A DNA stretch of 64,000 nt, taken from assembly GCA_030614255.1 (NCBI GenBank), contig JAUWKI010000002.1, forward strand, positions 4,449 to 68,448, written 5' to 3'. Of this stretch, positions 3,653-58,916 are shown in pieces (position 1 is the stretch's first letter; each line of letters starts with the position of its first letter). The position numbers were made by a program, and so were the translations under genes. The stretch comes from Actinomycetes bacterium. GTDB taxonomy: Bacteria; Actinomycetota; Aquicultoria; UBA3085; Oleimmundimicrobiaceae. Under the pieces are notes generated by a model. It was not told where the DNA came from, made no database searches, and was given only the letters and a program-made list of their open reading frames with translations.

Positions 3653-4292
3653 TTTTCTTCTTCATCTCCTCAACCAGATGTTCGAGCTTGTCTATTCGAC
3701 GATGCAAAGAGTTAAACGTTTCTGCCACGGGATCGGGGAGGCGCTCATGATGAAGATCCATAGTCGGAATTTTTTTGCCTTCCCTCTTTACAACCCTTCC
3801 CGGTATGCCGACAACCGTACTGTTTGGCGGAACGGGGTTAATTACCACGGCTCCTCCTCCAACAACAGAATTTTCACCAATAGTAATCGCTCCAAGAACC
3901 GTGGCACCAACACCGATTACAACGTTATCACCAATCGTCGGGTGGCGTTTCCCTTTCTCTTTCCCTGTTCCCCCTAAGGTCACACCTTGATATAGGGTAA
4001 CATTATCACCAATTTCGGTGGTCTCTCCAACGACTATACCCATCCCGTGATCAATGAAGAAACCTTTTCCAATCTTTGCTCCGGGGTGAATTTCAATAGC
4101 AGTTAAAAAACGACTAAGATGTGATATTAATCTGGCGAAAAGCTTTAAATCCCTTGCGTAAAACCAGTGAGCTACTCTATGGGACCTAAGAGCGTGAAAG
4201 CCCGGGTAGGTCAAGAATATCTCCAAGGTATTTCGCGCCGCAGGATCTCTATCTTTAACTGCCTGGAAATCACTTCTTAAGGTATCAAACAA
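3642..4292 (-). CDS. cysE: Serine O-acetyltransferase
   Basis: Hexapeptide-repeat left-handed beta-helix sequence ([24 protein letters not shown]). Sits between gltX and cysS. Confidence 0.9.
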
Positions 4293-5751
4293 GCTCCATT
4301 GCCTCCTCGATTCTCTCCAAACATTTCTCTTTCCCTAAAACCGAGATTACATAAAACAACTCCGGGCCGGATATCCTGCCGGTGAGAGCCGCACGAATAG
4401 GATGATAAGTTCCTTTTCCTTTAATATTTTTCATCTTCAATCTGCCGGCAACTTCCTTGAGAAGTACTTTTGCCATGTCAATATCGATTTTGTCCTCTTT
4501 CTCTAAAACTTCCTTGAGTATTTTAAGCACAGTTGGAATCTGCTCGCCTTTTAATATCTCTAAAGCATCCTCACTATAATCAAGCTTTTCTTCAAAGAAA
4601 AGCTTGGCACTCTTTACCACATCAGAGAGGGTCACAAGATTCGTCTGCACCGCTTCCACGACCTTTTCAATCCAAGCAATTTCTTCAATCGAAGGCTCAG
4701 ACGCAATATATCCTGCTTCCTTAAGATAGGGCAAAACCAAAGAAGTTAATTTTTTAAGCGGCAATCGTCTTATGTGCTGGCCGTTTATCCATTTAAGCTT
4801 ATCAATATCGAAGATAGCCGGACTTTTTGAAATCCTGTCTATTGAAAAAGCTTGAATTAGTTCTTGGGGAGTGAAAATCTCTCTACCATCACTGGACGAC
4901 CAACCAAGAAGAACAAGGTAGTTGACGAGCGCGCTTGGAAGAAATCCTTGTTTTCGATACTCTCCTATCGATGTCGCCCCGTGCCTCTTGCTAAGCTTCG
5001 CGTGATCCGGGCCTAAAGCCATCGAATTGTGAGCAAACTTTGGAACCGGATAACCCAATGCCTCAAAGAGAAGGATATGCCTAGCGGAGTTTGCGAGGTG
5101 ATCTTCTCCCCTTATGACATGGGTTATTTTCATGGTTGCATCGTCAATTACAACGGCGAAGTTGAAACTCGCCATTCCATCGGAGCGAATTAAAACGAAG
5201 TCTCCGATAACATCGCTATCGAATTCGACGTCGCCTTTGACCAAATCGTGAACCACAATTTTTCTTTTTGGAATTCTAAAACGTATGGTGGGTTTACGAC
5301 CTTCTGAGATTAAACGCTGCTCATCCTCAGGGGTTAAATTCCTGCAACGCCCATCATATTTCGGCATAACTCCCCGCTCAAGCGCTCCCTTGCGGTTCCT
5401 TTCAAGCTCATCCTCGGTGCAATAGCACCGATAAGCGAGCTCTTTTTCCAAGAGCTCGATGGCCATCTTTTTGTATAGTTCCCCACGTTTGCTCTGATAA
5501 TAAGGTCCGTAGTCGCCGCCAACCTCCGGCCCCTCATCCCAATTCAGCCCCAACCACTTAATATCTTCAATAATGGACTGCTCGTACTCAACAGCTGAAC
5601 GGCTGCGGTCTGTATCCTCAATTCGTAATATAAAAACACCGTTCTGACTCCTAGCAAAGAGCCAGTTAAATAAGACTGTTCTGGATGCCCCTATATGCAG
5701 ATGCCCCGTGGGACTCGGAGCAAACCTTACCCGAACATTTTTCAAAAACAC
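4285..5751 (-). CDS. gltX: Glutamyl-tRNA synthetase (copy 1)
   Basis: 488 aa with HIGH-type motif ([10 protein letters not shown]) and KLSKR. Probable GTG start preceded by an AAGGAG RBS. Confidence 0.95.
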
Positions 5752-5825
5752 ACACTCCTTATAGTCATCAGTTGACAGTCGGTAGTCGGGAGCACATTCT
5801 AATTAAAAAATAAAGTATAAGAATG

Positions 5826-5871
5826 CCCTGCCGGCAGGCAGGAAAAACGATATAGAAAAATTTAAAATGGA
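5826..5871 (-). repeat. Dispersed element R2 copy a: CCTGCC-NN-GGCAGG hairpin plus the 21-mer TATAGAAAAATTTAAAATGGA, in the gltX upstream region
   Basis: The 21-mer at 5851-5871 is identical to 41567-41587. A palindrome of the same type lies 8-13 nt to its left in both copies. Confidence 0.6.
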
Positions 5872-5965
5872 GCAAAATTCTTAAAAAGATCATCTAGAAA
5901 CTTTTTTAATTCTTAATTTTAGTTTTTCGCTTTTCATTCTCCATTTTTCACTTAACTTTACCCTT

Positions 5966-6439
5966 TTATTTTTCCTTTAACAAAACAACCGCTTGAGCGG
6001 CCATGCCTTCGCGTCGTCCGGTAAAACCCATTCCTTCTGTAGTCGTAGCCTTGAGACTTATTTGCGATTTATCAACTTTTAAAACCTTAGCAATTTTTTC
6101 TCTCATTTCCTCCCAATAAGGAGATAGTCTGGGCTCTTGTAAAATCACTGTAACATCCAAATTCTCAACCTTATACCCCTTTGAAAACATAAGCTTCGCA
6201 ATATTCGCAAGTAAGTCTAGACTATAAATGTTCTTATAGTTACTGGAGATATCCGGAAAATGCCGACCTATATCGCCCTCGGCAATAGCACCTAAAATTG
6301 CATCGATGGCCGCGTGGATCAAGACATCGGCATCCGAATGACCCTCCAGGCCTAGGTGATAGGGTATTTCAACCCCCCCTAAAACCAGAGGACGCCCTTC
6401 TATAAATCTATGCGCATCATAACCGATTCCAATCCTCAT
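5966..6439 (-). CDS. ispF: 2-C-methyl-D-erythritol 2,4-cyclodiphosphate synthase
   Basis: 157 aa. [12 protein letters not shown]...GHSDADV motifs are typical of IspF. Confidence 0.95.
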   Translation of the reverse strand: MRIGIGYDAHRFIEGRPLVLGGVEIPYHLGLEGHSDADVLIHAAIDAILGAIAEGDIGRHFPDISSNYKNIYSLDLLANIAKLMFSKGYKVENLDVTVILQEPRLSPYWEEMREKIAKVLKVDKSQISLKATTTEGMGFTGRREGMAAQAVVLLKEK

Positions 6440-7128
6440 TTTGTAAATCCCTTTTTTCTTAAAATCCCCTCTGCCACCTCTAAATCTTCTTGTGTAGTAA
6501 TCTTTATATTGTCGTACGAACCCATAATCATTCTCACCTTATAACCAAGTCTTTCAAGAAGCATAGAATCATCTGTCCCATAAATATTATCTCTCCTGGC
6601 TTTCCCGTGGGCCTCCTTTAAAACAGAGGTTAAAAATACCTGTGGCGTTTGAGCGCACCAAATACTTTCTCTAGGTAGAGTTTTGTCAATACTCTCACCG
6701 CCAACTATTTTCATCGTATCCTTCGCTGGAACGCCAACCACCACACCATCCCAGCCCTCAAGAGAGGATATCGCCTCAACTAGAATTTCTTGGGTTACAA
6801 GCGGCCTCGCCCCATCATGAACCAATACAACTTCCGCCGTTGGAGGAATGAAGCTTAATCCATTGCAAACCGAATCTTGCCTTTCCTCACCACCTTCTAT
6901 TATTTTAGAGACCTTTTTAAAACCATACTTCTCTACGACCTTTTCTCTACAAAACTCCACATCATCTACGTTAACCACAAGCATCACTTCGTCAACCGCG
7001 GAACAATCTTCAAAGACAGACAAGGTATGTGATAAGACCGATTTTCCCAACAAGGGTAGATATTGCTTACTACATCCTGATTTCATCCGGCTACTTTTCC
7101 CCGCCGCGACAATAATGGCTATTTTCAT
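6436..7128 (-). CDS. ispD: 2-C-methyl-D-erythritol 4-phosphate cytidylyltransferase
   Basis: 230 aa. [15 protein letters not shown] and the overlap with ispF are typical of ispD-ispF. Confidence 0.95.
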
Positions 7129-8808: not shown

Positions 8809-8826
8809 GTCAGCTACCAGTCTTCC

Positions 8827-8875
8827 GCCATCAGCCATCTGCCACCAGCCATCTGCCATCTGCCATCAGCCATCT
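8827..8875. repeat. Perfectly phased heptanucleotide tandem repeat (GCCATCW)x7
   Basis: gccatca gccatct gccacca gccatct gccatct gccatca gccatct. It is flanked by further 7-periodic spacer (gttaaag gttgaaa gtggaaa ... on the minus strand) up to the disA stop. Confidence 0.85.
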
Positions 8876-8971: not shown

Positions 8972-10042
8972 TCAGATATATCTTTCCAAAACACTGTGGT
9001 CTCGGAGTCTTTTTAGTCCTTCCCAGATAGCTTTCGCTCTAACCTCACCTATACCCTCAACCTCATCTAAATCTTCTATACTCGCTTCGAGAATAGTCTG
9101 CAAGTCCCCGAATTTCTTTATGATTTTACTCACTATTGTTGCCGGAAGACGTGGAATCTGTCTAAGGAGACGATAACCCCTGGGATGAACAACCTTGTCC
9201 AGAATATTTACAGTATCGCCCTCATATCCAAGTATCCGACATATATTGGTTAAATCCAGCAATTCATCGGAAGAAAGTTCTCCAAGTTCTCTCCCGGTTT
9301 TTTCAGCCCGCCTGCTGTCCTTGCAATAATCTTTTAGAACCATCATATTGTCTTCCTCGACGTGAGCCATAAGCTCATCTAACTGCATCTTTATCAATCG
9401 ACCTTCGGAGCCAAGCTCGCTTATGTAGCGTTCTACTTCATCAGAAACCCTTTTCACCATTTCAAACCTTTGAATAATCGTCGTTACATCCAAGAGCGTT
9501 ACAAAATCCTGAAATTCAAGAGAATTCAAGTTGGAAGAGACCTGATTGAGTCTAACTTTATATTTCTCAAGTGTCTGCAAAGCCTGATTGGCCTTGGCCA
9601 AAAGCGCTCTGATATCTTCGAGCGCATATTTGTAATTGTTCCAATATAATGATATTGCATCCCGTCGCTGTGAAATTGAGACTACTAAAGCGTTGGTCTG
9701 CTTCGCCACCCGCTCAGCGGTTCTGTGTCGCATTCCGGTTTCATCCGTTGTAAGCGTTGGATCTGGCACAAGGTGAATATTTGCACCCAAAATTTTCTTC
9801 AAATCCTCATCTAATACAATGGCACCATCCATCTTGGTTAATTCAAAAAGCTTCTGAGGTTGGAACTCAACATCCAGTCTAAAACCACCATCACAAAGCT
9901 TCCCAACTGCTTCAACATCGCCAATAACAATTAAGGCTCCTGTTTTCGCGCTTATAATTTGCTCCAAAGCATCGCGCACTGCAGTGCCTGGAGCCACCTT
10001 CTTCAAAACATCAATTAAAGTCGTCTTCTTTTTACCGCTCAA
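8972..10042 (-). CDS. disA: DNA integrity scanning protein DisA (diadenylate cyclase)
   Basis: 356 aa with a DAC domain (N-terminal GALIVIG... region) and a C-terminal HhH region. Follows radA. Confidence 0.9.
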   Translation of the reverse strand: MSGKKKTTLIDVLKKVAPGTAVRDALEQIISAKTGALIVIGDVEAVGKLCDGGFRLDVEFQPQKLFELTKMDGAIVLDEDLKKILGANIHLVPDPTLTTDETGMRHRTAERVAKQTNALVVSISQRRDAISLYWNNYKYALEDIRALLAKANQALQTLEKYKVRLNQVSSNLNSLEFQDFVTLLDVTTIIQRFEMVKRVSDEVERYISELGSEGRLIKMQLDELMAHVEEDNMMVLKDYCKDSRRAEKTGRELGELSSDELLDLTNICRILGYEGDTVNILDKVVHPRGYRLLRQIPRLPATIVSKIIKKFGDLQTILEASIEDLDEVEGIGEVRAKAIWEGLKRLRDHSVLERYI

Positions 10043-22205: not shown

Positions 22206-24044
22206 TTACTGAAATGTTATATATGCAAATTTTGAAGTCCCGTCATCTAATTCTATTCTCAATCGCCAGGTTCCCCTCGTAAGATCTTTTGTCCTGAGTT
22301 TGTAAAAATATTTATTGACAAAGCTATTATAATCAAACTCGTTGTCAGTTACCTTCGAGCTACTTGAGGTAGCCGCTATCTCTTCGCCAAAAGTACCGTC
22401 GATGTTCTTCTTCGCTAACCAGAGCTTGGCAGATGCATCGGTAACAAAATCACCATTAGCATCCCACAACTGGAATTTTACGGATAAGCCACTGCCCAAT
22501 TTAAAAACACTGCTTCCATCGCTTCTAATGGGTGGAAAAACACCACTATAAACATAACGAACATAATAAGTTCTCGTCTCTATTGTTTGGTTTCCGGCTT
22601 TATCCACCGCAACCACACTAAAAGTCTTTTCACCAACCGTAGCTGTGTCAATTACTCCCCCGTCAGGAATAGTTGCCGTCACCGAAGCTATCCCCGAAAG
22701 CGAATCATCGGCCAGCCAGCCAGCTAAAGCCGGCTCGTTCAATATATACTCAGCTCCATCAACCGGTGTAATTATTGAGACCTCTGGCGCTGTATTATCT
22801 ATTAATATATCAACTTCATTACTGGTTATTACACTTTCCAAATCGAAGTCGAACTTCTGGATTCGGTCGTTGTCTGTGTCGGCCACATAAACATTGCCGC
22901 TTGAATCAACGGTTATACCTATTGGATTCCGGAACTCGCCATCGTATAAGAAGCCGTAACTTCCCCATTTCCCAAGGAAAATGCCGTTTGAGTCGAACTT
23001 CTGGATTCGATGGTTAGAAAAATCGACTACATAAACATTGCCGCTTGAGTCGACGGCTATACCTATTGGATTCCGGAACTCGCCATCGTATAAGAAGCCG
23101 TAACTTCCCCATTCGCCAAGAAACTTGCCGTCTGAGTCGAATTTCTGGATTCGGTCGTTATTACAGTCAGCCACATAAACATTGCCGTCTGAGTCGACGG
23201 TTACACCAGTGGGGCAATCAAACTCACCTTTATCCGTACCGTAACTTCCCCATTCGGTGAGGGAATCACCATCTGAGTCGAACTTCTGGATTCGGTGGTT
23301 ATTACAGTCAGTCACATAAATATTGCCGCTTGAGTTGACAGTTACACCGAACGGGTCAAATGGGCCGTCGAGTGTACCATAACTTCCCCATTCGGTGAGG
23401 AAATTGCCATCCGAGTCGAACTTCTGGATTCGGTGGTTGCCCCGATCAGCCACATAAATATTGCCGCTTGAGTCGACGGCTACACCAGTGGGACAGTTAA
23501 ACTGGCCATCGTCTATGTCAAGACTTTCCCATTCGAAGAAATTGCCATTTGAGTCAAATTTCTGGATTCGGTGATTGTACGTGTCGGCCACATAAACATT
23601 GCCGCTTGAGTCAACTACTATGTCATATGGGCGGTTAAATTGGTCGTCGAGTGTACCAGAACCTTCCCATTTCAGAGTAAACTTATAACTTCCAATAGAA
23701 ACATTGAGTCTGGAGACGTAGTCCCCTTCATTAACTGAACCGCCATCATCGTCTGTCCCGTCCCAGATGATGCTATGAGTTCCACTGTTTTGAACACCAC
23801 CGTTGACAGTTCTGATAGGCTCACTTTCCAAATCATAATCCGAATCATAAATTTCAAGCGAAACATTGCCATCGTCAACATCGATTAAAGTGTAATTTAT
23901 GCTGGTGCTACCCGTCTCTGAATTAAAAGCATAAGGATCTACGACAATGTCAATTATAGCTGAATTACCAGATGCTAACGAAGTTGGTAGTAAAAGGGCT
24001 AAAAATAAAACCACAACTGTAAAACTTGTAACTATTTTCTTCAT
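22206..24044 (-). CDS. Secreted NHL-repeat beta-propeller protein
   Basis: Signal peptide MKKIVTSFTVVVLFLALLLPTSLASG. At least 6 NHL-type repeats (GxFxxPxGVAVDSSGNIYVAD..NHRIQKFD). The DNA also carries about 130 bp tandem repeats from 22850 to 23620. Confidence 0.85.
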   Translation of the reverse strand: MKKIVTSFTVVVLFLALLLPTSLASGNSAIIDIVVDPYAFNSETGSTSINYTLIDVDDGNVSLEIYDSDYDLESEPIRTVNGGVQNSGTHSIIWDGTDDDGGSVNEGDYVSRLNVSIGSYKFTLKWEGSGTLDDQFNRPYDIVVDSSGNVYVADTYNHRIQKFDSNGNFFEWESLDIDDGQFNCPTGVAVDSSGNIYVADRGNHRIQKFDSDGNFLTEWGSYGTLDGPFDPFGVTVNSSGNIYVTDCNNHRIQKFDSDGDSLTEWGSYGTDKGEFDCPTGVTVDSDGNVYVADCNNDRIQKFDSDGKFLGEWGSYGFLYDGEFRNPIGIAVDSSGNVYVVDFSNHRIQKFDSNGIFLGKWGSYGFLYDGEFRNPIGITVDSSGNVYVADTDNDRIQKFDFDLESVITSNEVDILIDNTAPEVSIITPVDGAEYILNEPALAGWLADDSLSGIASVTATIPDGGVIDTATVGEKTFSVVAVDKAGNQTIETRTYYVRYVYSGVFPPIRSDGSSVFKLGSGLSVKFQLWDANGDFVTDASAKLWLAKKNIDGTFGEEIAATSSSSKVTDNEFDYNSFVNKYFYKLRTKDLTRGTWRLRIELDDGTSKFAYITFQ

Positions 24045-32235: not shown

Positions 32236-32290
32236 CTTAAGTCGGTAGTATGCCTAGCTTCCAGCCCCCAGTCTCCAGCCGCCAGCATAA
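32236..32290. repeat. Heptad-periodic spacer (CTTCCAG CCCCCAG TCTCCAG CCGCCAG) between panB and panC, including the GTCGGTAGT word
   Basis: Direct reading shows 7-bp phasing of CCAG. The unit CCCCAGT is identical to cyanobacterial STRR1. Confidence 0.7.
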
Positions 32291-34794: not shown

Positions 34795-34978
34795 TTAGCT
34801 ACCAGTCACCAGCTTACAGCCACCAGGATAAAGTGCAAGACTTGAAATTCAGAGAATGGATTTGTGGTTAGAAAGTTTGGTTTGCCGGATTATTGGTTGG
34901 ATAGTTTTCCCCATACTCCAACATTCTGCTCTATTTTTAGTTTTGCTGAAAGCTGAGAGCTGGAGGCTGACGGCTAAA
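34795..34978. repeat. Heptad-periodic spacer between folP and folK (TAGCTAC CAGTCAC CAGCTTA CAGCCAC; GCTGAAA GCTGAGA GCTGGAG GCTGACG)
   Basis: Two phased 7-mer arrays flank a GTTTGGT/GTTGGAT-rich middle. The 200 bp gap sits inside a presumably co-transcribed folate operon. Confidence 0.7.
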
Positions 34979-36810: not shown

Positions 36811-36841
36811 AACAAAAAGGCCACCCGATTAACAGCGGCCC
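36811..36841 (-). terminator. Intrinsic-terminator-like hairpin (GGCCGC...GGGTGGCC followed by TTTTTGTTATTTT) about 50 nt upstream of the folE start. Candidate attenuator or riboswitch expression platform
   Basis: On the minus strand: gataagGGCCGCtgttaatcggGTGGCCtttttgttattttggggg. The hairpin plus U-tract sits inside the 5' leader of folE. Confidence 0.55.
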
Positions 36842-36965
36842 TTATCTTGCCGACTTAAGTCGGCCCTGGTTTTAGTTATCATCATAAGGCCAATGCTTAG
36901 GATGCTATATTATTAAACCAATCACCGGCTCTCATCCTCCAGGAAAATCAAAAATAAAAGCTTTT

Positions 36966-37258
36966 TATTGGTTTTTTAAAACCCGAGTGGGTTGGGTAGA
37001 CAGCGACCCACCTCCGACACTCCGTCGGGCAGGCTCTCCAGAGGCGGGGTTTCGACTGAAGCTATCTATTGTTTTTAGTTTTTAAAACTCGGTGGGTCGG
37101 ACAAATCGAAACTTGAGGCCGCCCCGATGAAACGAGTGGAAGGCTGGAAAGTGAACAAAGTGAGTGTCCAAGAATCTGTCTGAGCGTAAGCGAGTTATTC
37201 TCGGCCCGCCCGGAGCGAGTAAAGTCGCGGATACGGCCGAGTGTGGAGCATATTCGAC
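36966..37258. other. GC-rich, highly structured ~290 bp non-coding island with a 105-nt-spaced direct repeat (TTTTAAAACYCGRGTGGGTYGG), many local hairpins and a long-range GTGGGTCGG/CGACCCAC complement. Possible structured RNA or regulatory leader of the fol operon
   Basis: Local GC content is far above the ~40% background. No ORF with a homolog. It lies between the ftsH terminator and the folE attenuator. Confidence 0.35.
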
Positions 37259-37369
37259 CCACAAAAAAGAAATAACTAATTAAACAAACAATAACAAATC
37301 AGCTGTTAAGATTAAAAACGAGATTACTTCGCCGTGCCTACAGGATAAACCGGCGGTTTATAGCACTAA

Positions 37370-37400
37370 CAAAAAGGCCACCCGTCAAACGAGTGGCCTT
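37370..37400 (-). terminator. Rho-independent terminator of ftsH (GGCCACTCGTTTGACGGGTGGCC + TTTTTGTT on the minus strand)
   Basis: Perfect 8-bp GC stem followed by a U-run, 20 nt after the ftsH stop. Confidence 0.8.
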
Positions 37401-37421
37401 TCTTACAGATAAATGTCCTGC

Positions 37422-39974: not shown

Positions 39975-41357
39975 CTATTTTTTAAATCGAGCCCTAATTT
40001 TGAGAATACGCTGTGTCTTTTTGGTCACCTTAAACCTGTCATCAATTCTATGTCCGACAACCCAAACTATCTCTCCTCCGGATACAACTATGGGAACGTA
40101 ATCCCTCAACCGCTCGGGCAATTTTGCGTCCACGAAATAGTCTTGTAGTTTTTTTTCACCCTTTAAGCCGAGTGGATAAAATTTATCACCGGGTAAACGA
40201 CTACGAATGTTGATAGGGAAACGTGCCTTGTCAGCATCCAAACATTCAACAAGGACTCCCCCTCTTTCCGCCAAACGAGATTCTTTTTTTGAAATATCTT
40301 CTCTTATAAACAAATCTTCTTTTTTTTCTATCACGTTCATCTCAAGTTTAATATTTAACTCCGGTACTTCAATCTTTCCCGGCTCATCGAGAATAACCTC
40401 AACATATTTTTTTCTTTCAAGCAAACCTCGTCTTACTAGAACGAGTTCATTATACTCCCTAATGATGGAGAGATGACCCGGAATATCCCGTCTAAATTTT
40501 GGCATCTTCTCCGCATCCAATAATATATCTTTTATATGCTTAAACTCAACTGCCTCAAGGTCTCCTTTTAAAACTTTGAGTCCTATGCGCAATACCCTGC
40601 GCCTTATTGCCAAAGGAAGTGATTTTAAATCTTTGAGCGAAAATCTAATCAAGCCATTTTCAATCAAGGATAGACGATTAAACTCCCGGGAAGCAGTTTC
40701 ATCTAAAAATTGTTCATCATCGCTAATAACTTCAATGGTCTGTAAAGTTGTCTCTCTAAGGTTTGGGTTGTATTTTTCCAGATAGGGAATCAAATCGTAG
40801 CGAACCTTGTTACGAAGATAGGTAAGGTCAAAATTTGAAGCATCCACCCTGAATTTAATTCCTTGAGCTTTACAATATTCTTCAATTTCCTTTCTTGAAA
40901 TTTCAATTAAAGGACGAACAAATATATCTCTCACAGGAGGAATAGCGCTTAGTCCTTTGAGTCCGCTTCCTCTTAAAAGACGCATCAAAAAGGTCTCCGT
41001 TTGATCATCGGCCGTATGCCCCAACGCTATCTTGTCCACACCTATCTCGTCCGCTACTTTCTTGAAGAGCATATAGCGAACCTCCCGCGCGCCATCTTCC
41101 ACGGAAAGGTTTTTCTCGGTAACATATGATGGAACATCGAAAGAGAGAATCGTCGAGGGCAAACTCTCTTTTTTAGCCAGCGCCTCTACAAACTGCGCGT
41201 CTTTCTTTGAAGCATCTCCTCGAAGCATGTGGTCTAAATGAAAAATATGCAGACTCAAATTAAAGTTATTTCTAAGTTGGAGTAAAAAATGAAGTAAGGC
41301 AACCGAATCTTGACCACCAGATACGGCAATCAATACTTTATCGCCGCGCTTTAACAT
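39975..41357 (-). CDS. tilS: tRNA(Ile)-lysidine synthetase
   Basis: PP-loop SGGQDS near the N-terminus. Start called at MLKRGDKVLIAVSGGQDS; the longer ORF-track N-terminus is probably an extension. Confidence 0.85.
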   Translation of the reverse strand: MLKRGDKVLIAVSGGQDSVALLHFLLQLRNNFNLSLHIFHLDHMLRGDASKKDAQFVEALAKKESLPSTILSFDVPSYVTEKNLSVEDGAREVRYMLFKKVADEIGVDKIALGHTADDQTETFLMRLLRGSGLKGLSAIPPVRDIFVRPLIEISRKEIEEYCKAQGIKFRVDASNFDLTYLRNKVRYDLIPYLEKYNPNLRETTLQTIEVISDDEQFLDETASREFNRLSLIENGLIRFSLKDLKSLPLAIRRRVLRIGLKVLKGDLEAVEFKHIKDILLDAEKMPKFRRDIPGHLSIIREYNELVLVRRGLLERKKYVEVILDEPGKIEVPELNIKLEMNVIEKKEDLFIREDISKKESRLAERGGVLVECLDADKARFPINIRSRLPGDKFYPLGLKGEKKLQDYFVDAKLPERLRDYVPIVVSGGEIVWVVGHRIDDRFKVTKKTQRILKIRARFKK

Positions 41358-41538
41358 ATTGTATTTTAAAACGGTGTCTTTAACCCTTTTAAATAGATTA
41401 TCGGTTGATATAGAAATCCACTCCCATAAAGCGGTTAATAGATAATAGTAATTCCGTTTAACTTCCACATTACTTTTATCCTTTTAACTGTCAGCCATCA
41501 GCAAATTAAAAAATAAAAGTGAAAAAAGAAAAACTACC

Positions 41539-41587
41539 TACCTGCCAACAGGTACAATAGACACAGTATAGAAAAATTTAAAATGGA
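41539..41587 (-). repeat. Dispersed element R2 copy b (TACCTG-TTGG-CAGGTA hairpin plus TATAGAAAAATTTAAAATGGA) in the tilS upstream region
   Basis: Its 21-mer is identical to the one at 5851-5871. Confidence 0.6.
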
Positions 41588-41687
41588 AATTTCTTTAAGG
41601 TAATGCTCATCATAAAATCAACATCTATTTCTCGGGTAAACTATGCTTGGAAATCATTTTTATTTTTTCATTATCGTTTTACATTCT

Positions 41688-41748
41688 TCATTTTTCATTT
41701 TTTCGTAAGACCAGGCAACCCTGTACCAGGTATCTGGCATTTAACTTC
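41688..41748 (-). repeat. Dispersed ~60 bp element R1 copy 1 (TTTTCGTAAGACCAGGCAACCCTGTACCAGGTATCTGGCATTTAACTT)
   Basis: About 90% identical to 51971-52036. Contains a CCAG-ATAC-CTGG mini-hairpin. Lies downstream of the amidase gene and upstream of tilS. Confidence 0.6.
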
Positions 41749-41759
41749 ACTCTATATCC

Positions 41760-42851
41760 TTACTTAAGGTATTTAACTATCCCGTTAAACAACCCCCGAG
41801 CCGCTTTATTCTGGAACGATTCGTCATTTAAGAGGGTATCTTCTTCGGGGTTGCTCAAAAAACAAATCTCAGACAGAACAACTGGAACCTGCGACCAATT
41901 AAAGCCCGTAATATCTCCTCTTGCAATTATTCCTTTATTTGCCCGCCCGCAAGCGATGACCATCTCCCGCTGAATAAGTTGAGCAGCTTTCCGGCTTTCA
42001 TCGTATATAGACCCACACCATTCATTTCTGGAAGGATAAAGAGTCATGATACCATTTGATGAAGTGCTTGAACTGCCATTACAATGAATTCGGACAAACA
42101 AGTCGGCCTTTGCCTCGTTGGCAATTTGAGCTCTTTCAGAGTTACTAATGTTTACATCGTTAGTAGTCCGAACCATCACAACCTTAATCCCTTCACTTTC
42201 AAGCATTTTCTTCAATTTTAACCCTATCTGTAAAACTATCTCATATTCGGGAGTTCTTGAATTTACTCCGGTTCCTCCTCCTCTGCATCTCTCTTTCGTT
42301 GTGGTAGAACCCGGTCCGATAGATTCTGGAGAGTTATCTGCATGCCCCTGATGACCTGGGTCTATACAGACTATAAACTCAAACGATGTTACCTTTAAGT
42401 CCTCAAAATCTTCGGAGTCCTCCTCGAATGCCTCAGGGGTAGCTTCCCCAAGCCCTTCGGAAAGATCAGTTTCAACATCTGTTGGAACTTCCTTAGCAGA
42501 TGTTCTCTCTGCCCCTTTGCTCACCGATATGACGATTAACTTGCCTCTTTTTACTCGACTTCCTGAGTCAGGTTTTTGAGAAATAACAGTTCCCTCGGGT
42601 AAATCGCTGAATTTTTCTGAAACTTCAAGATCAAACCCACTTTGGGAAACCAGACCTTTTGCTTCTTCTAAATTTTTTCCAACCAAATTCGGGACGACCT
42701 CGGAAACAATAACGTTTGTATAGATATAATAAAAACCAAGAATCAAAAGTATCAGTAGAAAGAAAACGCTGAGAAGTCCCCGCTTTCGGCGTTTTCTGTA
42801 AATTACGATGCCGTGTTTTAGTTTAACTTTTGGAGTAAAATTTCGCTTCAC
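41760..42851 (-). CDS. Membrane-anchored PASTA-domain / N-acetylmuramoyl-L-alanine amidase (Amidase_3) fusion protein
   Basis: N-terminal TM segment, then a PASTA-like domain (VPNLVGKNLEEAKGLVSQSGFDLEV), then a C-terminal amidase_3 core (CIDPGHQGH...NGSSS...). Confidence 0.7.
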   Translation of the reverse strand: MKRNFTPKVKLKHGIVIYRKRRKRGLLSVFFLLILLILGFYYIYTNVIVSEVVPNLVGKNLEEAKGLVSQSGFDLEVSEKFSDLPEGTVISQKPDSGSRVKRGKLIVISVSKGAERTSAKEVPTDVETDLSEGLGEATPEAFEEDSEDFEDLKVTSFEFIVCIDPGHQGHADNSPESIGPGSTTTKERCRGGGTGVNSRTPEYEIVLQIGLKLKKMLESEGIKVVMVRTTNDVNISNSERAQIANEAKADLFVRIHCNGSSSTSSNGIMTLYPSRNEWCGSIYDESRKAAQLIQREMVIACGRANKGIIARGDITGFNWSQVPVVLSEICFLSNPEEDTLLNDESFQNKAARGLFNGIVKYLK

Positions 42852-46953: not shown

Positions 46954-47015
46954 GCCCGCCTCCCCGCCTGCCTACGCCTATGATGCCGTTAGGCATTGGC
47001 GGGCAGGTGGCGGAG
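46954..47015. terminator. Extended GC-rich inverted repeat (GCCCGCCTCCCCGCCTGCC ... GGCGGGCAGGTGGCGGAG) downstream of the radical SAM gene
   Basis: Member of the CCCGCC/GGCGGG hairpin family, with an inner GCCTA/TAGGC hairpin. Confidence 0.5.
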
Positions 47016-47033
47016 TTTATGACTAAAATAGTT

Positions 47034-47110
47034 ATTGGTCATTGGTTCTTGGTTATTAGCTGGGGGCTGAAGACTGGAAGCTGGAAGCTGCGCTATCGAC
47101 TAATTGGGGT
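47034..47110. repeat. Eleven phased heptamers upstream of mqnA (ATTGGTC ATTGGTT CTTGGTT ATTAGCT GGGGGCT GAAGACT GGAAGCT GGAAGCT GCGCTAT CGACTAA TTGGGGT)
   Basis: Direct reading. The TTGGTCA unit equals cyanobacterial STRR2. Confidence 0.8.
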
Positions 47111-47941: not shown

Positions 47942-49013
47942 ATTGAAAGCAACGGAGAATATTTTAAAAAAATCTCTTTCTGGAAAAAGAATTACAGAAA
48001 ACAAGGCACTCACCCTATTGAAAGAAGGCAAGCTAATTCAATTGGGAGAAGCTGCAAACGAATTGCGCAAAAAATTTCACCACGAAGGCATTGTCACATT
48101 TGTCATCGATAGAAACATAAATTACACCAACATATGCGAGAGTAAATGTAAGTTCTGCGCCTTCTATAGAGAAAAAACTGACCCGGACGCTTACGTTCTC
48201 GACAAAGATGAAATATTTTCAAAGATAGATGAGGCATTAGAGCTAGGCGGAACTCAAATTATGCTACAAGGAGGGCTTAACCCCGACTTAAAAATAGACT
48301 ATTACACAGATTTGCTTTCAGCTATAAAATCAAATTACAAGATACACATCCACTCCTTTTCCCCCCCGGAAATTGCTCACATCTCTAAAAACTCAGGACT
48401 TTCACTAAGAGAAACTCTTTCGGAGTTAAAGAAAGCGGGGCTTGATTCTTTACCCGGTGGAGGTGCCGAGATCTTAGTTGACCACATTAGACATCAGATA
48501 AGCCCAAACAAAATCGGAGCCGAACTCTGGCTTAAGGTTATGGAAGAAGCTCACAACGTTGGTCTTCGAGCAACCGCAACCATGATGATGGGAAGTTTGG
48601 AAACATTGGAGGAAAGAATCTCTCATCTCTCCAAATTAAGAGCTCTGCAAGATAAAACAGGAGTTTTCAGGGCCTTTATCCCCTGGACATTTCAACCCGG
48701 GCACACAGAACTAGGTGGGGAGAAAACAACGGGGGTTGAATATCTAAAAATGCTTAGCGTCTCGAGGATATTTTTAGATAATTTTGAGCATGTGCAGGGT
48801 TCATGGCTTACCCAGGGCAAAAAAATTGGGCAAATTGCTCTTCATTTCGGGGCAAACGACTTGGGAAGCATAATGATAGAGGAAAATGTCGTCGCCTCAA
48901 CAGGCGTCTGTTACAAGATGTCAAAGGACCAGATAATCAATATGATTAATAAAGCGGGTTTTATCCCGGCCCAAAGAAACACCAAATATGAAATTTTAGA
49001 AACCTTTAGTTAA
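47928..49013 (+). CDS. Radical SAM MqnC/MqnE family enzyme (paralog 2)
   Basis: CxxxCxxC (CESKCKFC). Colinear with paralog 1. Confidence 0.8.
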   Translation: MWRYRLKATENILKKSLSGKRITENKALTLLKEGKLIQLGEAANELRKKFHHEGIVTFVIDRNINYTNICESKCKFCAFYREKTDPDAYVLDKDEIFSKIDEALELGGTQIMLQGGLNPDLKIDYYTDLLSAIKSNYKIHIHSFSPPEIAHISKNSGLSLRETLSELKKAGLDSLPGGGAEILVDHIRHQISPNKIGAELWLKVMEEAHNVGLRATATMMMGSLETLEERISHLSKLRALQDKTGVFRAFIPWTFQPGHTELGGEKTTGVEYLKMLSVSRIFLDNFEHVQGSWLTQGKKIGQIALHFGANDLGSIMIEENVVASTGVCYKMSKDQIINMINKAGFIPAQRNTKYEILETFS

Positions 49014-50594: not shown

Positions 50595-50689
50595 ATAATG
50601 GCATTAAACTCCAGTTTGTTATTTGCGTCAATCCTTCTATGCTTTTGTTTGCCACTAAACTTTACTATAAGATTCGAGCTTCAGCATAG

Positions 50690-50780
50690 GTTTTCAGAAG
50701 AACAAAAGAAATTTAACCCAGCGAGTTTTATCCTCGCCAGAAGAAACACCAAATATAAAATCCTGGAGACTCTCAGTTAG
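50690..50780 (+). pseudogene. 3'-terminal fragment of a MqnC/E-like gene (relic duplication)
   Basis: 50719-50780 aligns at about 75% nucleotide identity with 48952-49013. The peptide ...ASFILARRNTKYKILETLS* matches the paralog-2 C-terminus ...AGFIPAQRNTKYEILETFS*. No radical SAM core precedes it. Confidence 0.5.
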
Positions 50781-50976
50781 TAAGTAAACTACCACCGGCC
50801 ACAGGGCTGGTGGCTTTCCTACCCCCGATGCAGGCGATATCATTGCTATAAGGGACCTTTTGGGATTAATTATTCACTGGGAAGAGAAAACCGAGTAAAA
50901 AAACAGAGTCATCGTTGCAGGGACCCTAAGATACACTGAGCTCAAACCGCACCTATAATTACCCAACCGGTTATCC

Positions 50977-51970: not shown

Positions 51971-52036
51971 ATTTTCATTCTCCACTTTTTCGTAAGACCA
52001 GGCAACTCTGTGCCAGGTATTTGGCATTTAACTTTA
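51971..52036 (-). repeat. Dispersed ~60 bp element R1 copy 2
   Basis: About 90% identical to 41688-41748. Lies about 100 nt upstream of the AmrS-like gene start. Confidence 0.6.
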
Positions 52037-52039
52037 CCC

Positions 52040-52260
52040 ATTACCCTATACCAACCAGTCGGTAGTTTCTTAGTGGGAAGTCGGCAGTTTGCCGGCCAAA
52101 TTACTGATTTTACTATATTCCATATTCTATACTCTATATTCCATTCACCATCTGCTATCTGCCCCGCCAAAGGCGGGCAAGCATCTGCTATCAGCTATCT
52201 AGTCGGTAGTCCGTAGTCTGGAGTCGGTAGTTTGTTGGCTAGATTGCTGGTCTTACTATA
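52040..52260. repeat. 220 bp spacer built from phased heptamers (ATAYTCY units; AGTCGGT AGTCCGT AGTCTGG AGTCGGT) plus four GTCGGYAGT words and a CCCGCC-AAAG-GCGGG hairpin
   Basis: Direct reading. Lies between tRNA-Arg and the AmrS-like gene. Confidence 0.75.
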
Positions 52261-58679: not shown

Positions 58680-58916
58680 CTTGAGATTGCCGCGTCGCCT
58701 AACGGCTCCTCCCGCCAGAGGCGGGCAGGCATAATGACGGGGAAGTGTTGCTCTAATCTCTCTACTTGATTTCTACTGAGTGTTGATATTGAAATTAATG
58801 GTAATTCATTGAAACTAATAGTAATTTATGGTAACTAACTGAAATTTCCACCAATTACCACTTAATCTCCACTTAATTACAACTTAATTTCTATTTAATC
58901 CTTACCCCTATCCCCT
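58680..58916. repeat. Heptad-periodic spacer between the gltX copy 2 stop and tRNA-Gln (TTAAT/GGGTAAW units), with a CCCGCC-AGAG-GCGGG hairpin
   Basis: Minus strand reads GGGTAAT GGGTAAA GGGGATA GGGTAAG GATTAAA ... in phase for more than 150 nt. Confidence 0.7.

Follow-up and report, generated by a model that had tools for sequence, protein, structure and literature searches.

A 21-nt repeat with an invariant 16-nt core upstream of gltX and tilS in an uncultured actinobacterial lineage: a candidate clade-specific module with separable GC hairpins

The window, that is, the whole stretch of 64,000 nt that was analysed, has a GC content of 42% with a strong skew and carries the repeat at two sites, called A and B. 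The gene order at site A was ispD (6436–7128), ispF (5966–6439), site A, gltX (4285–5745), cysE and cysS, and at site B it was the gene of a PASTA-domain amidase (41760–42851), site B, tilS, hpt and ftsH. The gltX gene was identified by TIGR00464 (560 bits) and has a TTG start 9 nt after the ribosome-binding site AAGGAG (5760–5755). The tilS gene (39975–41411) was identified by TIGR02432/02433; comparison with TilS homologues showed that the GTG at 41468 of the open reading frame is not the start, and the start annotated in the clade is ATG 41357. All genes around both sites are on the minus strand, so the element must be read on the minus strand too, a correction to the preliminary description. 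The closest named relative was Candidatus Oleimmundimicrobium sp. (Actinomycetota, Ca. Aquicultoria, Ca. Subteraquimicrobiales), with GltX and TilS 81% and 72% identical, respectively. We know of no account of regulation in this deep-branching, uncultured actinobacterial class.

The 21-mer TATAGAAAAATTTAAAATGGA (plus strand) was present in exactly two identical copies in the window (Table 1), as the preliminary description had stated, and a search permitting three mismatches still returned just those two. Dinucleotide-preserving shuffles gave a mean of 0.02 copies and no shuffle reached two. The repeat is not due to chance. The copy at site A is located 106–126 nt upstream of the gltX TTG start, and the copy at site B ~157 nt before the probable start of tilS (ATA 41411) and ~210 nt before the annotated ATG. 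The similarity between A and B goes beyond 21 nt and spans the entire spacer layout: the alignment extends over ~35–40 nt around the 21-mer (CTT(T)AAAGAA(A/T)TT..TCCATTTTAAATTTTTCTATA), and the two sites also have in common a purine-rich motif, TGAAAAATGRAGAATG (5950–5935 and 41697–41682, minus strand), and a T-rich stretch, CTTT(T)ATTTTTTAATT. Read from 5' to 3', the layout after the upstream stop codon is TGAAAAATGRAGAATG, 45–90 nt of AT-rich DNA, TCCATTTTAAATTTTTCTATA, 8–12 nt, a GC hairpin, CTTT(T)ATTTTTTAATT and a heptamer-like run (GACTACC... or GCTGATGG...), followed by the ribosome-binding site and the gene. Copy A contains A-rich heptamers, two copies of TTAAGAATT, the core, hairpin A and the T-rich stretch. 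The purine-rich motif at site A has counterparts at site B and, more weakly, at 51976–51991; the one at site B overlaps a consensus-level promoter-like match, ATGAAA-17-GATAAT (41698–41670).

Table 1. Positions of the repeat, the module copies and the associated features in the window.
Feature	Position	Strand	Remarks
Heptamer-like run GACTACC GACTGTC AACTGAT GACT	5764–5790	-	just 5' of gltX ribosome-binding site
Module copy A ('type 1')	5788–5951	-	ispF–gltX spacer
Hairpin A (uCCUGCC-ugcc-GGCAGGg)	5826–5843	-	REP-like
Site A 21-mer	5851–5871	-	TCCATTTTAAATTTTTCTATA on coding strand
Site A invariant 16-nt core TTTTAAATTTTTCTAT	5852–5867	-	
Purine-rich motif TGAAAAATGGAGAATG	5935–5950	-	just after ispF stop
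High-identity non-coding block (module B and tilS leader)	41412–41685	-	0.90–0.97 vs L031/L033
Module copy B ('type 2')	41504–41704	-	amidase–tilS spacer
Hairpin B CUAUU-g-UACCUG-uugg-CAGGUA-GGUAG (41560–41534) and tail (41533–41522)	41522–41560	-	
Site B 21-mer	41567–41587	-	invariant core 41568–41583
Purine-rich motif TGAAAAATGAAGAATG	41682–41697	-	

Orthologous spacers of relatives were compared on the gltX side in L027 (JGI 3300022547, GltX 83% identical), L028 (GCA_030651595.1, 81%) and L029 (JGI 3300033144, 76%), and on the tilS side in L030 (the MAG of L028), L031 (the sample of L029), L032 (the sample of L027) and L033 (the same as L031); two loci of one JGI sample were presumed to come from one organism. 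The 16-mer TTTTAAATTTTTCTAT was found exactly five times in 144 kb of lineage DNA, each time on the coding strand upstream of gltX or tilS. In the same 144 kb there were no variants of the core with one mismatch, and a profile HMM built from the five copies detected no further ones. The core was absent from ~25 other spacers of the window and from ~80 kb of the relatives. Its carriers were three organisms with coding DNA ~75% identical, at two loci. The gltX spacers of L027 and L029 contained TCCATTTTAAATTTTTCTATc and taAgTTTTAAATTTTTCTATg, respectively, at the same place and without a hairpin, and the tilS spacer of L031 contained cCCATTTTAAATTTTTCTATA with a hairpin. The module has been lost from the gltX spacer of L028, which retains the part with the heptamers and the ribosome-binding site, and it was absent from the tilS spacers of L030 and L032. 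The heptamer-like run at gltX was kept in all four close relatives, including L028. The nearest relative of module copy A was the gltX spacer of L029; copy B contains a 25-mer, GATAATGAAAAAATAAAAATGATTT, that is identical in the gltX spacer of L027 and the tilS spacer of L031. The core was invariant though its flanks diverge, even between orthologous gltX copies, and the 21-mer can be read as this invariant core with variable ends. By these comparisons the core is an old, invariant feature of a clade-restricted module, present in only a few related uncultured Actinomycetota (Ca. Oleimmundimicrobiaceae-like). Contigs of the same species from three samples (SRR12623522, SRR14865926 and ERZ4219663) were 99.9–100% identical and added no variation. 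The spacers of two more distant relatives, L034 and L035 (GltX 63% and 59% identical), were short or unrelated and had no module, and therefore gave no deeper footprinting.

Beyond the lineage, the exact 21-mer was found at seven places in one genome each of 185,579 species (596 Gb) and on 13 JGI metagenome contigs. These were single matches in unrelated organisms, mostly in coding sequence, with no hairpin nearby. An AT-rich sequence of this length is expected to match that often by chance, and the 21-mer is therefore neither a generic nor a widespread repeat. The preliminary description had named occurrence at many unrelated sites as the result that would speak against it; all five cores of the lineage are at gltX or tilS. 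A BLAST search of plasmids and phages with window positions 41412–41700, which cover most of the tilS-side module and the leader, gave no match, and a plasmid or phage origin was rejected. A literature search on the genus and on the regulation of tilS yielded nothing relevant.

The link to the translation apparatus that had been proposed is weak, as lysS, cysS, rlmB and three tRNA genes in the same window have no module.

Palindrome A (CCTGCCGGCAGG, 5827–5838; alternative fold CCTGCC-ggca-GGCAGG, 5827–5842) and palindrome B (TACCTG-ccaa-CAGGTA, 41539–41554) are perfect, and each ends 12 nt before its 21-mer on the plus strand, so the equal spacing reported earlier was reproduced. Their half-sites are CCTGCC and TACCTG, their spacers are 0 and 4 nt, and only CCTG...CAGG is common to both. 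The hairpin was missing from two of the five core copies (L027 and L029), and hairpin A is a small insertion relative to these two orthologous spacers, which show a gap in the alignment. The word GGCAGGCAGG of palindrome A was seen again directly behind the ispF stop in L028 and next to the 5' edge of the tilS module in L031, both times with an orientation relative to the genes opposite to that in hairpin A. Hence GGCAGGCAGG/CCTGCCTGCC was present at site A, in L028 and in L031 at differing spacer positions and orientations; hairpin B is only loosely similar to it. Other GC hairpins gave 10 intergenic hits and were scattered in the spacers of the window. On the coding strand, hairpin A is a marginal terminator with a 6–7 bp stem and an interrupted U-tail, GCAUUCUUAUACUUUAUUUUUU, and hairpin B, an 11-bp stem with one bulge followed directly by UUUUUCUUUUUU, has the predicted form of an intrinsic (Rho-independent) terminator. 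In L031 hairpin B is kept but weakened (CAGGTA to CAGGCA, with a shorter U-run). Terminator-like matches at the palindromes exceeded the shuffle expectation (3 vs. 0.5 and 2 vs. 0.3). Since the hairpin is absent from two of five copies, A and B differ and similar hairpins are scattered through the spacers, the GC hairpins are most probably REP-like insertions separate from the core and not an operator.

Repetitive extragenic palindromes (REP/BIME) are known from E. coli and other bacteria. The GC hairpins resemble them in that they are short and GC-rich, form imperfect palindromes, are limited to spacers and vary there in position and orientation, with the word CCTGCCTGCC/GGCAGGCAGG recurring across genomes; by analogy, those between co-oriented genes could terminate or stabilise transcripts. 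However, this comparison covers the hairpins and not the AT-rich 21-mer, the copy number is small, and hairpin B has only CCTG...CAGG in common with the others.

Further elements of this kind were observed. Spacer B contains a second GC hairpin element at 41705–41740 (minus strand), probably the 'R1' of the preliminary description. A 74-nt repeat at 41687–41760 matches 51974–52047 at 85%, with a GC cassette of ~35 nt (GCCAGATACCTGGTACAGGGTTGCCTGGTCTTAC) inserted in a backbone between GTTAA and GTGAAAAATGG; an empty, uninterrupted backbone is found at site A, at ~5951–5955, between GTTAAGTG and AAAAATGG. Another GC hairpin family, (T)GCCCGCC-nnnn-GGCGGG(GCA), was detected at 52163–52177, 58711–58725 and ~46985–47040 and in L031 at 9650–9694, in spacers adjoining tRNA genes and elsewhere, sometimes nested in CCTGCC...GGCAGG arms. 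In one independent assembly of the same strain, Logan contigs L010 and L013 (SRR14865926) overlap by 30 nt at 5833–5862 and end exactly at the junction of hairpin A and the core (a k=31 graph branch). Such a break may point to a variant in the same sample (one that has or lacks the hairpin, for example) or to a further copy of the junction there.

Between the window and L031, coding DNA (tilS, amidase and hpt) was 72–78% identical, the module was 94% identical (152/162) and the leader behind it 93%. In a sliding profile the identity was 0.90–0.97 only from ~41685 to ~41412, corresponding to 9690–9947 in L031. Outside this block it fell to 0.37–0.45 directly upstream and to ~0.75 inside tilS. 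The right-hand limit of the block coincides with the probable tilS start codon, which argues for constraint on the non-coding DNA. Other orthologous spacers were 73–83% identical and the gltX spacer 79%; because unconstrained spacer has decayed to 0.37–0.45, spacer that can still be aligned is probably constrained. Within the block the window was closer to L031 than to L032, though the three genomes are about equidistant in coding DNA, and this closeness, together with the identical 25-mer, argues for copying or transfer. Relative to the empty site of L032, L031 has an extra ~280 nt between GCAGATGGC and GCTGATGGC, and this insertion contains the module; both flanking sequences belong to the heptamer run, and the only duplication resembling a target site is a 9-nt repeat. 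In this comparison of two sequences, the high identity of the block may reflect either strong constraint on the leader or a recent recombination tract.

The tilS start was also considered. It is probably a non-canonical codon, ATA (41411–41409) or ATT (41417–41415), that precedes the annotated ATG. Translation of the 54 nt in front of the ATG gives ...LFKRVKDTVLKYNM, in agreement with the N-termini of distant TilS proteins (...FFDRVLTTIRKHQML...), and differences among four relatives in the region before the ATG (41357–41420, minus strand) were mostly synonymous. Given the in-frame stops of L031 and L032, no ATG, GTG or TTG is available there, and GGAG or GGGAG is found 9 nt before the ATA in all four sequences (window, L030, L031 and L032). 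The gene that makes AUA decodable may itself start with AUA.

The shared upstream module of gltX and tilS in the preliminary description is real and non-random; no promoter was located with confidence, as sigma-70-like matches were no commoner than in shuffles and their positions varied among the copies. Matches at 9/12 were TGGAGA-16-TAAAAT at A and ATGAAA-17-GATAAT at B and in L027; L029 and the sense strand of L031 had no such match. By eye, TTTAAA of the core was followed after 16–17 nt by TACATT (L027 and L029) or TATTGT (B and L031) in four of the five copies, a geometry that fails at site A, where the hairpin sits. With this reading at B, the transcript would start inside the hairpin and would escape its own terminator. 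The module thus resembles a sigma-70 promoter with an UP element in being AT-rich and upstream and in this spacing, and AAATTTTT resembles part of an UP element; however, the core has no -35 TTG. The spacer bases of a sigma-70 promoter would not need to be invariant. Clear promoters of this organism are canonical, for example TTGACA-17-TATAAT in the 17708–17558 spacer. No convincing match to the consensus sequences of CodY, Fur, SigH, SigD or ECF factors was seen by eye. An antisense promoter, TTTAAA-16-GATAAT in L031, was rejected because the window has GGTAAT and the motif is not conserved. The tiny open reading frames that run across the core do so in a frame that differs among the copies (three frames in all), so the conservation of the core is not explained by coding. 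L031 and the window both keep the putative leader peptides MISKHSLPEK and MMSI(T/I)LKKFPF (four of five substitutions are synonymous), but these were rejected, having no Shine–Dalgarno sequence and no counterpart at gltX.

The earlier model held that the GC palindrome is the operator of a dimeric regulator, that the 21-mer is an attached promoter and that the two genes are co-regulated. Perfect palindromes at one distance from both 21-mers, with CCTG...CAGG in common, suit this model, but the half-sites and spacers differ, the palindrome is absent from L027 and L029, which keep the core, and it is degraded in L031. Similar GC palindromes stand in other spacers in both orientations, the T-runs that follow the palindromes on the coding strand are terminator-like, and the core lacks the dyad symmetry usual in the site of a dimeric regulator. 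The comparative data largely refute this model, which we regard as highly unlikely. The 21-bp repeats are identical, in the same orientation and 35.7 kb apart, which would agree with attL and attR of an integrated element of ~35.7 kb; this is extremely improbable and was rejected, as the interval holds syntenic housekeeping genes (ispDF, the disA/radA neighbourhood, ftsH, hpt and tilS in the same order as in the relatives and in Firmicutes) and relatives carry a single core at orthologous sites. A structured-RNA reading of the module is also improbable, be it as a leader or attenuator in which the core and the terminator hairpin form a terminator/antiterminator switch or as an sRNA of ~130 nt from the GATAAT site to hairpin B. 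Hairpin B and its U-run do lie inside a conserved block that reaches from ~10 nt upstream of the -10-like GATAAT to the tilS start, each of the changes from the window to L031 at 41643 and 41640 makes a small CAAGC/GCUUG hairpin stronger, and the core is complementary to the upstream A-rich motif (13 of 15 pairs by hand; 80% over 15 nt computed). However, a core/A-rich-motif helix was rejected as an effect of composition (shuffles were at least as good in a fraction of 0.05–0.7), and the fold of five leader segments was not significant against shuffles (z = -0.56, -1.97, +0.54, -0.33 and -1.03), with predicted structures that were not common to the copies. Two of the five copies have no hairpin, and L031 has no -35. 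Rfam at gathering thresholds returned only three tRNAs in the whole window, and at E ≤ 10 only noise-level matches of snoRNA or miRNA type in both spacers, with no T-box. The module is similar to T-box and other aminoacyl-tRNA synthetase leaders in its position before genes for an aminoacyl-tRNA synthetase and a tRNA-modifying enzyme and in the terminator-like hairpin between conserved sequence and gene; it differs in these results and in an AU-rich core unlike that of a T-box.

A neutral or selfish low-copy mosaic repeat is the main alternative and a serious one, though on balance doubtful. Small dispersed spacer pieces, such as purine-rich words, REP-like hairpins, heptamer runs and the AT-rich module itself, would move by illegitimate or short-homology recombination, and the identity of the 21-mers and the 94% block would be due to recent copying or transfer and not to function. 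The varying presence of the module among close relatives agrees with this, as do the type-2 copy with its identical 25-mer at non-orthologous loci of different genomes, the flanked ~280-nt insertion in L031 against the empty L032 site, the block identity that is higher to L031 than to L032 despite nearly equal coding distance, the other small repeats and hairpins scattered through the spacers, and the assembly that breaks exactly at the hairpin/core junction. Against it, all five copies are at the same two genes in the same orientation, with none in the other spacers searched, the block of high identity does not run past the tilS start codon, inspection by eye revealed no terminal inverted repeats at the module, no plasmid or phage was matched, and the core is invariant with divergent flanks. 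The reading that we tentatively favour, and that may be correct, is a cis-regulatory module, specific to the clade and part of a promoter or leader, in which the 16-nt core serves as a recognition site and which was copied between the gltX and tilS operons. A sense-oriented, AT-rich, non-coding module of ~100–200 nt would occupy the 5' regions of the gltX–cysE–cysS and tilS–hpt–ftsH operons, its core would be recognised sequence-specifically in DNA or in the leader RNA, and the module would have been copied between the two loci and kept by selection. Hairpins would have been inserted independently a few bases 3' of the core, where they may serve as intrinsic terminators or insulate gltX or tilS from the gene before it, partially at A and well at B. 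We infer from sequence comparison that the conservation probably reflects function and that this function would be regulatory. Several points stand against the regulatory reading: the module is dispensable, being absent at gltX in L028, at tilS in L030 and L032 and in the more remote L034 and L035, and the type-2 version occupies the gltX spacer of one genome and the tilS spacers of two further genomes. Type-2 copies at differing loci, together with the L031 insertion, point to mobility or recombination, which could explain the identity without function.

Composite modular intergenic repeats that carry promoters or terminators include the Correia elements of Neisseria, BOX and RUP of pneumococci and ERIC of enterobacteria. 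By analogy, the module is like them, a mosaic of ~100–250 nt upstream of genes whose presence varies between close relatives and which may affect expression; however, it showed no terminal inverted repeats by eye and is restricted to two loci and one orientation, and those families are high-copy. Modular intergenic repeats are the broad class in which it would be placed, and nothing here shows a categorically new mechanism. It is distinctly improbable that the core is the recognition element of an undescribed regulatory circuit coupling glutamyl-tRNA synthetase and the lysidine synthetase TilS, with a tilS leader of ~270 nt, probably ending in an AUA or AUU start, as a new cis-regulatory RNA sensing tRNA or translation status. 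If the core is a true regulatory site, it would define a small lineage-specific regulon of the operons of an aminoacyl-tRNA synthetase and the tRNA-Ile2 lysidine synthetase, and the tilS leader would be a candidate for a new RNA element. If the module is a mosaic repeat, it has descriptive value, as spacers of this lineage would be assembled from a few short movable pieces. It would then also caution against taking a palindrome plus a repeat for an operator. Under both readings the earlier finding of a shared operator should be downgraded.

Other repeats were noted in the spacers of the window. Many minus-strand spacers open, right after the upstream stop, with the purine-rich words GGGTAAAG, GTGGAAAG, GTGAAAAATGGAGAATG and GGGTATAAGG (for example, 5965–5930, 8971–8905, 32461–32435, 58916–58840, 1443–1383 and 52073–52040), and these look like a grammar common to the spacers of the lineage. 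Units of 7 nt (AGATGGC/TGATGGC, GACTACC/GACTGTC and CTGGTAG) were repeated in runs just 5' of ribosome-binding sites at 8811–8875, 5764–5790, 34796–34825, 32240–32290, 52190–52240 and 47060–47100, as well as in the gltX leaders of L027–L029. They are reminiscent of the heptamer STRR repeats of cyanobacteria, and such runs flank the module insertion in L031. Tandem repeats of ~138–144 nt (5–7 units, 62–96% identical) at 22847–23673 lie inside the minus-strand open reading frame 22206–24044, which therefore encodes a protein with a repeated domain of ~47 aa. The spacer downstream of ftsH (36825–37421) is unusually long (597 nt) and partly GC-rich; it had no Rfam match at gathering thresholds, and the corresponding stretch of L030 measures only ~120 nt. 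A terminator hairpin and two GGGTTTTAAAAA(A)C motifs lie in the spacer of the window. A 67-nt direct repeat (48946–49012 and 50713–50779, 76% identical) contains a small hairpin (GCGGGTTTTATCCCGGC / GCGAGTTTTATCCTCGC); a plus-strand gene carries one copy at its 3' end, and the second copy is in the 382-nt spacer 50595–50976.
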